Below, one piece after another: positions 4,482 to 7,226 of a DNA stretch of 64,000 nt. How positions within the stretch are numbered: the first letter of the stretch is position 1; the number at the start of each line of letters is the position of its first letter. Below the pieces are notes generated by a model. It was not told the origin of the DNA. It worked only from the letters and a program-made list of their open reading frames with translations, and ran no database searches. Both the position numbers and the translations under genes were made by a program. The stretch is from the NCBI RefSeq assembly GCF_988242995.1, contig NZ_OZ547043.1; one strand, 5' to 3'.

Positions 4482-5576
4482 TCACGCGACGGCTTTACCG
4501 TTACGCACAAAAACAGGTTTCGTCACTTTAACCGGCATTTCACGGTTGCGAATTTGCACAATCGCTGTTTCACCAATACCTTCCGGCACGCGCGCCAGCG
4601 CAATGCTGTAACCCAGCGTCGGGGAGAAAGTACCGCTAGTGATAATGCCTTCATGCTGGTTGCCCTGCGCATCGGTAAAGCGTACCGGCAGTTCATTACG
4701 CAGCACGCCTTTTTCGGTCATCACCAGACCAACCAGTTTTTCTGTGCCATGCTCACGCTGCACTTCCAGGGCTTCACGACCGATGAAGTCACGATCTGCC
4801 GGTTCCCAGGCGATAGTCCAGCCCATGTTGGCGGCTAAAGGAGAGATGGTTTCGTCCATCTCCTGACTATAAAGATTCATACCCGCTTCCAGACGCAGCG
4901 TGTCACGCGCGCCCAGGCCGCATGGCTTAACGCCCGCTTCCACCAGCGCACGCCAGAAATCGGCCGCTTTTTCATTGGGCAGCGCAATTTCATAGCCCGC
5001 TTCACCGGTATAACCAGTGGTGGCAATAAACAGATCGCCCGCCTGCACGCCAAAGAACGGTTTCATCCCTTCCACCGCCTGACGCTGGGCGTCATTAAAC
5101 AGTGTGGCAGCTTTTGCCTGCGCATTCGGCCCTTGTACGGCGATCATGGAAAGGTCATCACGAACGGTAATTTCGATGCCGAAAGGTTCAGCGTGTTGGG
5201 TAATCCAGGAGAGGTCTTTTTCGCGGGTGGCGGAGTTAACAACGAGGCGGAAGAAATCTTCAGTAAAGTAGTAGACGATGAGGTCATCTATCACACCGCC
5301 AGAGGCATTCAACATCCCCGAGTAAAGGGCTTTGCCGCTTTTGGTGAGTTTCGCCACATCGTTCGCCAGCAGATAACGCAAAAACTCCCGGGTGCGGCTG
5401 CCGCGAAGATCGACGATGGTCATATGTGACACATCAAACATTCCGGCATCGGTACGTACCGCATGATGTTCGTCGATTTGCGAACCGTAATGCAGCGGCA
5501 TCATCCAGCCGTGGAAATCCACCATGCGAGCGCCGCAAAGCGTGTGTTGTTCGTACAAAGGAGTCTGTTGTGCCAT
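4482..5576 (-). CDS. gcvT: Aminomethyltransferase, glycine cleavage T protein, 364 aa
   Basis: [24 protein letters not shown]...; the track ORF carries a 41-codon upstream extension. Confidence 0.95.
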
Positions 5577-5949
5577 CTTGTCCTCATTGAATAAGCGGGG
5601 CTGACAACTTTTCCATGGCGAAATTATCACCACGAAACCCAGCATCGGAGCCACTCCCGGTCCCCAACGCAATCGTTCTCTTTTGCCTGAACTTACCACC
5701 GAAACAGACTGTTAACCATAAGGTAAAATTGATCATCACATTAGCTTATGGTTAAAAAACGCCAAAATCGCAACAGAATAAAAAACCAAAAAACACACCA
5801 ACTTCTATAGAAAGATGATGCGATGAGGAAATTAATTTGAATAAGGCAATATTAAGAGCTGAAAAAATGTCAAAAAACACTAAATCAAAAATTCGTGGCA
5901 TTAGAAAATATAATGCGAAAACGGAGGTGAAATTAGTTTATTTCAAATG

Positions 5950-5980
5950 AGGAAAATCTCCCGGCGAAAAAACCGGGAGA
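5950..5980 (-). terminator. Intrinsic terminator downstream of ubiI (works in either orientation)
   Basis: tctcccgg-cgaaaaaa-ccgggaga hairpin flanked by A/T runs. Confidence 0.55.
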
Positions 5981-6023
5981 TGAAAGTGTGATGGGTATCA
6001 AATAAACAGCAGAAGAGAAATTT

Positions 6024-7226
6024 TTAACGCAGCCATTCAGGCAAATCGTTTAATCCCATTGCCTGGCGGATAAGTTGTGGTTTAACGCCAGGAAGCGTGT
6101 CGGCCAGTTTTAAACCAATATCACGCAGCAGTTTTTTCGCCGGATTGGTACCGGAAAACAGATCGCGAAATCCCTGCATACCAGCCAGCATCAGCGCCGC
6201 ACTGTGCTTGCGGCTACGCTCATAGCGACGCAGATAAATGTACTGCCCGATGTCTTTCCCCTGACGATGCAACCGTTTCAGTTCAGCAACCAGCTCTGCA
6301 GCATCCATAAAGCCGAGATTTACCCCCTGCCCCGCCAGCGGGTGAATGGTATGCGCGGCGTCGCCCACCAACGCCAGACGGTGCGCGGCAAACTGGCGCG
6401 CATAACGCCCCGTCAGTGGGAACACAAGGCGCTCACTCTCAACCTTACATAAGCCCAGGCGATTATCAAAAGCGATATTTAACGCGCGATTAAATTCGTC
6501 TTCACTTGCCTGCTGCATCCGCTGCGCTTCCTCTGGCGACAGTGACCAGACAATCGAGCAAAGATGCGGATCGCTAAGCGGTAAAAAGGCCAGAATGCCT
6601 TCGCCATGGAAAACCTGCCGCGCCACCGCATCATGCGGTTCTTCCGTGCGAATGGTCGCTACCAGCGCGTGATGCTGATAATCCCAGAAAGTCAGCGGAA
6701 TATCGGCTTTGTTGCGCAACCAGGAATTAGCGCCGTCCGCGCCAATCACCAGACGCGCCGTTAACATACTGCCATCTTTCAACGTCAGGAAGGTTTCATT
6801 TTCTCCCCAGGCGACCTGCTGTAATTCTGCGGGGGCCAACAGAGTGATATCTGACGACTGCTGCGCTTTGTTCCACAGCGCGTAGTGAATCACTGAGTTT
6901 TCAACGATATGCCCAAGATGGCTATAGCCCATGCTTTGATCGTCAAACGAAATGTGACCAAAGCTGTCTTTGTCCCACACTTCCATACCGTGATAACAAC
7001 TGGCCCTACGAGAGAGAATGTCCTGCCAGACGCCAAGACGGGTGAGTAATTTTTCGCTGGCGGCATTGATAGCCGAAACGCGCAGTTGTGGTGGTGCATT
7101 CGCCGCCAGAGGTTCCGGTACGCGCTGCTCCAGTACGGCAACGCGTAAGCCGCTCCCCTGTAAGCCGCAGGCAACCGCCAGCCCCACCATGCCGCCGCCA
7201 ACAATGGCTACATCAACACTTTGCAT
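6024..7226 (-). CDS. ubiI: FAD-dependent 2-octaprenylphenol hydroxylase, 400 aa
   Basis: N-terminal VAIVGGGMVGLA FAD-binding fold; matches VisC/UbiI. Confidence 0.9.
   Translation of the reverse strand: MQSVDVAIVGGGMVGLAVACGLQGSGLRVAVLEQRVPEPLAANAPPQLRVSAINAASEKLLTRLGVWQDILSRRASCYHGMEVWDKDSFGHISFDDQSMGYSHLGHIVENSVIHYALWNKAQQSSDITLLAPAELQQVAWGENETFLTLKDGSMLTARLVIGADGANSWLRNKADIPLTFWDYQHHALVATIRTEEPHDAVARQVFHGEGILAFLPLSDPHLCSIVWSLSPEEAQRMQQASEDEFNRALNIAFDNRLGLCKVESERLVFPLTGRYARQFAAHRLALVGDAAHTIHPLAGQGVNLGFMDAAELVAELKRLHRQGKDIGQYIYLRRYERSRKHSAALMLAGMQGFRDLFSGTNPAKKLLRDIGLKLADTLPGVKPQLIRQAMGLNDLPEWLR

Follow-up and report, generated by a model that had tools for sequence, protein, structure and literature searches.

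The window, a 64,000-nucleotide stretch of an E. coli chromosome, carries gcvP, gcvH, and gcvT followed by ubiI, ubiH, and pepP, all on the minus strand. The gcvT and ubiI genes are separated by a spacer of 447 nt, bounded by the gcvT ATG at 5576 (-) and the ubiI stop at 6024 (-). Its GC content of 37.6% agrees with the AT-rich region described in the original prediction. Within this spacer, a frame on the plus strand opens with an ATG at 5867, runs for 27 sense codons, and closes with a TGA at 5948-5950; both the coordinates, 5867-5950, and the translation, MSKNTKSKIRGIRKYNAKTEVKLVYFK, are as first proposed. This frame is almost certainly yqfI, the small-protein gene b4754 of E. coli K-12, and is as such already known, annotated, named, and represented in Pfam. 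In the RefSeq annotation of K-12 MG1655, yqfI (b4754, YP_009518813.1) occupies 3,050,958-3,051,041 and aligns base for base with 5867-5950 of the window. The closest strain, 1190 (99.8% identity), has a RefSeq CDS (WP_122545169.1) at exactly the window's coordinates, to which PGAP gives the label "hypothetical protein" and not YqfI, and SEC470 has a RefSeq CDS labeled "protein YqfI" at the window's coordinates with the same offset. The K-12 protein is MSKNTKSKNNGIRKYNAKTEVKLVYFK, and the window allele is identical to it at 25 of 27 residues, with IR for NN at residues 9-10 (I9N, R10N).

The window peptide matches the Pfam entry PF23690 ("YqfI-like") with 63.2 bits (cut-off 27; E = 1.2e-17) over positions 1-27 of 27, and no model in NCBIfam matches it. 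A search of Rfam with positions 5400-6200 returned no match at the gathering score and two sub-threshold chance matches only. Using megablast, the spacer was found in 5,425 of 5,426 complete E. coli genomes, and the match carries an annotated CDS in each of 90 rows spread-sampled from the 5425 genomes. The exact window peptide is present on at least 1000 public contigs and is a common allele. A search of the protein databases, for which the 43-aa stop-to-stop frame of yqfI was the query, returned 62 homologues, and all those with a named source are from E. coli. The peptide has a mass of 3.2 kDa and is strongly basic, with nine K+R against one D+E and a pI of 10.5. What was put forward as a possible translated basic micro-ORF is therefore an annotated gene, the tagged K-12 product of which has been detected in published blots.

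The evidence for translation of yqfI comes from the K-12 literature and consists of an SPA-tag immunoblot and a TetRP signal at its floor value. VanOrsdel and colleagues in 2018 added an SPA tag to the 3' end of 80 chromosomal MG1655 small open reading frames (sORFs), 36 of which were detected by immunoblot (PMC6001520). The product of yqfI, listed as gcvT / ubiI, "< > <", 27 aa, is among the detected proteins (PMC6001520); it was seen in rich medium with the tag at the native locus in K-12 (PMC6001520). By the authors' account, each experiment and each immunoblot was repeated to make sure of reproducibility (PMC6001520). They identify yqfI as an unannotated positive of the tetracycline ribosome-profiling screen of Nakahigashi 2016, and they describe most of 13 proteins that were also TetRP-positive, in a list that includes YqfI, as abundant on the blots (PMC6001520). 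A mass-spectrometry study that they cite found none of these small proteins (PMC6001520). In Table S5 of Nakahigashi et al., the entry P_ECK2900_2901_3048980, which has the same ATG as yqfI, is given an RBS value of -2.73, a TetRP value of 4.2847, a CmRP value of 0, and a ratio of 429.47 (PMC4909307). Several sORFs of 3-4 codons in this table share the exact three values of yqfI (PMC4909307), so we read its TetRP value as the detection floor of the data set. The lengths of the 328 intergenic sORFs in that screen match random expectation, and many may represent low-level ribosome binding (PMC4909307); Nakahigashi et al. also raise, as a general possibility, a function that lies in translation only (PMC4909307). 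No further paper using the name yqfI, and no assigned function, was found in the searchable literature, and a yqfI entry is absent from the searchable supplements of Stringer 2021, PIRT-seq, and the Enterobacteriaceae "Cryptic microproteome" survey.

Taken from its sequence alone, the yqfI ORF is no better than chance. Of 2000 dinucleotide-preserving shuffles of the spacer, 94% hold one or more ATG ORFs that reach 27 codons (mean 2.3), and the real spacer holds four; the original prediction was right to caution that the frame might have arisen by chance. The three other spacer ORFs, all unannotated and 46-51 codons long, are located at 5752-5901 (-), 5615-5755 (+), and 5584-5739 (-). One of them is antisense to the yqfI start. 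None is shorter than yqfI, which is not the longest of the four, so that ORF length is uninformative in this spacer.

The initiation signals are likewise modest. A weak Shine-Dalgarno-like AAGAG at 5854-5858 (+), 8 nt 5' of the ATG, lies in an unstructured A-rich leader in which no anti-SD duplex is better than -3.5 kcal/mol; the best one is 19 nt from the ATG, which bears out the weak Shine-Dalgarno sequence noted at the outset. The initiation region (5837-5905) folds with -4.1 kcal/mol (z = +0.65) and is essentially unstructured, and the 12 nt before the ATG differ from those of K-12 by one change. A possible in-frame extension (5837-5866, +) begins at a putative TTG start at 5837 and would give a 37-aa protein, MNKAILRAEK-YqfI. 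The sequence GAGGA at 5825-5829, 6-7 nt 5' of this TTG, pairs with the anti-SD at -6.3 kcal/mol and a spacing of 6 nt, and a 37-aa form of YqfI is used by some older annotations. In this context K-12 has GAGAA for GAGGA, and the divergent E. coli strain SCPM-O-B-8794 has TTT for TTG.

A consensus promoter and terminator scan of both strands of the yqfI region found neither a sigma-70 promoter nor a terminator. A relaxed PWM scan yields plus-strand candidates with a TSS near 5765 or 5786 and a score of about 6, near the 99.9th percentile of the background, and since these are at background level only, we name no promoter for yqfI. With neither a recognizable sigma-70 promoter nor a same-strand intrinsic terminator, yqfI does not have the makings of a self-contained transcription unit. 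A perfect -35 hexamer, TTGACA, is present at 5868-5873 (-), opposite the yqfI start (ATGTCAA) and on the gcvT strand. It has no good -10 at a distance of 16-18 nt, where the best sequence is TATTGC (PWM score 6.2).

The terminator hairpin that had been placed just after the ORF, at 5957-5980, is real, but it serves ubiI on the opposite strand. It folds with -17.9 kcal/mol (z = -3.9), and none of 200 shuffles folds as well. The minus strand reads ...GGGAGAUUUUCCUCAUUU, and no T-run follows the stem on the plus strand. With its U-run on the minus strand, we assign the hairpin to ubiH-ubiI as their intrinsic terminator and reject it as a terminator of yqfI's own, at least of the canonical type. 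In E. coli YZ22PE165, an IS1 transposase gene (positions 708-992 of its locus) lies ~37 nt 3' of the yqfI stop, between yqfI and the expected position of ubiI, so that ubiI is split from its terminator region.

Within E. coli, the first 11 codons of yqfI combine a largely invariant stretch with a polymorphic one. Codons 9-11 (5891-5899, +) are a polymorphism hot spot in 13 E. coli alleles and 62 database variants, where they encode IRG, NNG, IRD, NND, IHN, ICG, NHD, NHN, and more, amounting to over 20 different combinations when alleles and database are pooled. Codons 19-20 are a second hot spot, encoding either TE or SQ in the 13 alleles, and rare read-through or frameshift forms of 37-40 aa are present in the database. 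The 13 alleles require at least nine nonsynonymous and four synonymous events. For codons that lie outside the GcvA blocks described below, dN/dS is not less than 1 (omega ~1.2, a crude value based on 11 events), and by this crude count the variation in the unconstrained codons is indistinguishable from neutrality. Codons 1-8 (5867-5890) are invariant in 10 E. coli strains; in three further alleles they are unchanged in two and have two changes in one. Selection acting on either the initiation region or the N-terminus could account for this invariance. In the same 10 strains, 29 of the 106 positions (27%) just upstream, at 5761-5866 between the inferred GcvA site 1 and yqfI, are polymorphic, in contrast to 3-4% of positions in the gcvT leader and the terminator flanks. 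The hypervariability of 5761-5866 may reflect constraint on AT-richness or bending, in the Lrp region, more than on sequence, or it may reflect recombination of divergent alleles. Identity over the 451-nt spacer ranges from <95% to 100% across the 5425 genomes. The E. coli S87 assembly has ATA for the yqfI ATG (positions 50-52 of its locus), which may be a real loss of the start codon or an assembly error; PGAP still annotates the CDS there, with the accession of the ATG-initiated protein.

For a comparison across the Enterobacterales, we took 80 gcvT loci from other members of the order among the matches listed, excised their ubiI-gcvT spacers, and built an alignment of 75 spacers in which those of the window and K-12 are included. 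The gcvT matches listed include none from E. albertii, E. fergusonii, Shigella, or S. enterica subsp. enterica. Among the matches listed, an ATG is present at the aligned yqfI position in 11 of the 75 spacers (E. coli, SCPM-O-B-8794, eight Citrobacter, and S. enterica arizonae), and the full 27 codons are kept in five (the window, K-12, SCPM-O-B-8794, C. amalonaticus, and Citrobacter sp. Awk4). The remaining 64 spacers among these matches have no aligned start, and the TGA is CGA in many of them. Five genomes of the C. freundii group encode MSKMAL and then a stop at codon 7, and the S. enterica arizonae frame stops at codon 19. The frame is thus not kept open in related genera. Broken frames in close relatives, which the original prediction regarded as evidence against a gene, are found outside Escherichia, in the form of the codon 7 and codon 19 stops and the 64 startless spacers, and are not found within E. 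coli.

The ATG and 5' third of yqfI are confined to Escherichia, Citrobacter, and Salmonella among the matches listed, and by this distribution they appear to be young. Citrobacter and S. arizonae retain the motif GAAAAAATGTCAAAAA with the ORF open or interrupted, and its conservation may be a DNA-level feature. In a number of Enterobacter, Lelliottia, and Klebsiella loci, a conserved inverted repeat, CGGAAAAACGGGCCGAATTTCCG, replaces the 5' third of yqfI (aligned positions 5860-5885). Strain SCPM-O-B-8794 has an intact YqfI with 74% amino acid identity. It falls in a species cluster of its own, its first 120 GcvT residues are 100% identical, and its spacer has diverged much further than the spacers of the 13 E. 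coli strains have; we take the strain for a probable cryptic lineage of Escherichia.

The 3' two-thirds of yqfI show a different pattern. Positions 5900-5950 are among the best-conserved segments of the spacer in the 75-spacer alignment, which extends to Serratia, Rahnella, and Edaphovirga. They are laid out as ATTAG-N6-TAAT-GCGAAA (5900-5920), a variable 6-nt gap, and GTGAAATTAG-N3-ATTTCAAATGA (5927-5950). The first block, ATTAGAAAATATAATGCGAAA (5900-5920), contains ATTAG-N6-TAAT, encodes YqfI residues 12-18, and is near-invariant in 74 Enterobacterales spacers; it is the putative GcvA site 2 of gcvTHP. The second block, GTGAAATTAGTTTATTTCAAATGA (5927-5950), contains a GAAAT-N6-ATTTC inverted repeat and an ATTAG at 5932-5936, encodes residues 21-27 and the stop, and is the putative GcvA site 3. 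In this second block most columns have an identity of 0.8-1.0, as far out as Serratia, Rahnella, and Edaphovirga. Conservation of this kind is not codon-periodic: identity in the conserved part of yqfI is 0.845, 0.688, and 0.809 at codon positions 1, 2, and 3, with position 2 the lowest, which is the opposite of the coding pattern.

GcvA, a LysR-type protein, has a consensus of T-N11-A containing 5'-CTAAT-3' (PMC3658693). This motif is present in the blocks at 5900-5950 and is conserved across the Enterobacterales. The 15-nt ATTAG-N6-TAAT at 5900-5914 has a single occurrence in the 64-kb window, and one copy of this pattern lies in the K-12 gcvA/gcvB control region, 58-72 bp upstream of the gcvB +1. 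A further ATTAG (CTAAT on the gcvT strand) at 5740-5744, with a conservation of 0.91 over 5737-5746, is the putative GcvA site 1 by the gcvT promoter. Closer to gcvT, the sequence ACGCAATCGTTCTCTT at 5667-5682, in a conserved block (0.81-0.95 across 5667-5696), resembles a PurR operator. As a PurR-box-like sequence it would be consistent with purine repression of gcvTHP. A weak -35 TGGTTA / -10 TAAGTT pair predicts a gcvT TSS near 5683, and on the strength of this pair and the PurR-box-like sequence we place the TSS there. Wilson, Urbanowski and Stauffer reportedly mapped, in 1995, the distal GcvA footprints to -214 to -271 of gcvT. Counted from a TSS near 5683, those footprints would presumably fall at 5897-5954. 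We infer that the conserved blocks are the upstream activating sites of gcvTHP, and that YqfI residues 12-27 and the stop would be a translation of this activating-site DNA.

The protein family itself carries a trace of this overlap. In Klebsiella, Enterobacter, and Edaphovirga, which lack the ORF, the PF23690 model scores conceptual translations of the aligned DNA with 19-23 bits (E 1e-4 to 1e-5), below the threshold. The matches in ORF-less genera cover profile positions 8-27 only, and tblastn likewise scores their conceptual translations of the GcvA-site DNA. Since profile positions 8-27 score DNA that is not translated in these genera, part of the YqfI family signal is a DNA motif. The searchable papers contain no discussion of the overlap between yqfI and the GcvA sites.

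These observations are best explained, and we think with somewhat better than even probability, if yqfI is a lineage-restricted and weakly translated ORF, the peptide of which is a tolerated by-product (a "proto-gene") or has at most a role specific to Escherichia. A low-abundance plus-strand transcript would arise in the AT-rich region upstream of gcvTHP that is bound by Lrp and GcvA. Ribosomes would bind the unstructured, A-rich leader with no true Shine-Dalgarno sequence to guide them and start at the ATG at 5867, and the predicted product would be a 27-residue, strongly basic peptide with a pI of 10.5. Its final 16-17 codons, together with the stop, would coincide with the DNA of the two distal GcvA sites of gcvTHP, and because of this shared DNA, the C-terminal part of the peptide would be fixed by protein-DNA recognition and not by selection on the peptide. 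Both the ATG and the opening third of the frame would be recent, having arisen in the Escherichia-Citrobacter-Salmonella group, with the full frame kept mainly in Escherichia and the N-terminal third drifting. YqfI would accordingly appear to be free of peptide-level selection.

Several observations do not sit easily with a tolerated by-product. Each of the 90 sampled E. coli rows has an annotated CDS, SCPM-O-B-8794 keeps the frame whole, codons 1-8 are invariant in 10 strains beside a segment that is 27% polymorphic, GAAAAAATGTCAAAAA is retained in Citrobacter and Salmonella, and most of the proteins shared with the TetRP set, in the list that includes YqfI, were abundant on the VanOrsdel blots (PMC6001520). 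The species-wide frame and the invariant codons beside a hypervariable upstream segment, together with a tagged product in rich medium and the excess of nine K+R over one D+E (pI 10.5), would be expected of a small basic protein that functions, and is selected, in Escherichia, a reading that we consider unlikely but to which we give some weight. Such a protein could, for example, bind nucleic acids or ribosomes, modulate a larger protein, or possibly take part in glycine/one-carbon control. However, the conserved part of yqfI is without coding periodicity, the free codons give an omega of ~1.2, and more than 20 combinations occur at residues 9-11. Stops also cut the frame short in S. arizonae and in the C. 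freundii group, it is missing elsewhere, the start is ATA in one E. coli assembly, rare alleles extend to 37-40 aa by read-through or frameshift, and there is no family match beyond the protein's own E. coli-only Pfam entry. It is also improbable that the K-12 signal is a spurious product stabilized by the 8-kDa SPA tag and that the ORF of the window strain is a chance frame without meaningful translation. The frequency of equally long ORFs in shuffled spacers (94%), the weak Shine-Dalgarno sequence, the floor-level TetRP and CmRP of 0, the absence of yqfI from the searchable supplements of Stringer 2021, PIRT-seq, and the Enterobacteriaceae microproteome survey, and the failure of the mass-spectrometry study cited by VanOrsdel to find any of these small proteins (PMC6001520) are all as an artefact would have them. 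The immunoblots, however, were repeated for reproducibility with the tag at the native locus (PMC6001520), the TetRP call at the ATG of yqfI is independent of them (PMC4909307), and the window keeps the K-12 ATG and a near-identical leader, with one change in the 12 nt before the ATG.

The peptide might instead be irrelevant, with transcription or translation across 5867-5950 acting in cis on gcvTHP, or with read-through producing an RNA antisense to the 3' end of ubiI. The traffic of RNA polymerase or ribosomes through GcvA sites 2 and 3 would then alter how gcvTHP is activated or repressed. The ORF coincides almost exactly with the putative GcvA sites, its start context is kept in Citrobacter and Salmonella even where the ORF shrinks to 6 or 18 codons, as in regulatory short ORFs, no plus-strand terminator precedes ubiI, and a function of translation only has been raised in general terms by Nakahigashi et al. 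(PMC4909307). We nevertheless regard an action in cis as doubtful, because no plus-strand promoter stands out, the ribosome-profiling signal is at its floor, a leader-peptide mechanism has no co-oriented downstream gene to act on, and the same conserved sites regulate gcvTHP without the ORF in most Enterobacteriaceae. A role for yqfI as a leader peptide or attenuator upstream ORF is rejected outright, as there is no co-oriented downstream gene and the next gene, ubiI, is convergent, which makes classical attenuation and translational coupling inapplicable. Most speculative, and in our judgment very unlikely, is a feedback in which yqfI was born de novo on an array of transcription factor binding sites, its 16 C-terminal residues read out the GcvA sites, and the peptide or its translation feeds back on the activation of gcvTHP in Escherichia. 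In one form of this feedback, YqfI would compete with GcvA/GcvR or Lrp at the very DNA that encodes it. If a feedback of this kind were true, it would explain the species-wide retention of codons 1-8 and of the frame beside a hypervariable segment.

Under the preferred explanation, a translated by-product lying over activator sites, the apparent conservation of a small "protein family" can stem mostly from an overlapping transcription factor site, as with PF23690 and the GcvA DNA. A strain with yqfI deleted or tagged is also altered in its distal GcvA sites and in the DNA immediately upstream of the ubiI terminator. Since the GcvA sites are edited too, the phenotypes of such strains are not assignable to the peptide without point mutants of codons 1-11. 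The yqfI gene has been named, tagged, and entered in RefSeq and Pfam since 2018-2023, which leaves little discovery value in the frame; the overlap with GcvA sites is a useful caution and does not make the finding of yqfI novel. The locus is nonetheless a neat example of translated ORFs emerging in regulatory DNA.

The closest known counterpart of the window ORF is K-12 yqfI itself, which has the same gcvT/ubiI location, strand order (< > <), length of 84 nt, start, and stop. The two differ at residues 9-10, and the window carries one of many natural alleles at this polymorphic hot spot. The PF23690 family matches the window peptide over its full length, and the named members found are all from E. 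coli. Like the other intergenic sORFs of Nakahigashi 2016 and VanOrsdel 2018, yqfI is short and intergenic, with a weak RBS and without a known function; it differs from others of this type in having a gene name and a tagged-protein blot, and it is unusual in overlying activator sites of a mapped type. With leader peptides and regulatory upstream ORFs it shares a very small size, a position in a regulatory intergenic region, a conserved start, and a length that varies among genera, whereas it has no same-strand gene downstream. The conserved blocks within yqfI resemble the GcvA sites of gcvTHP in having CTAAT in T-N11-A-type dyads, in lying far upstream of the gcvT promoter, and in being deeply conserved, although a GcvA site is an element of DNA-protein recognition and not a gene.
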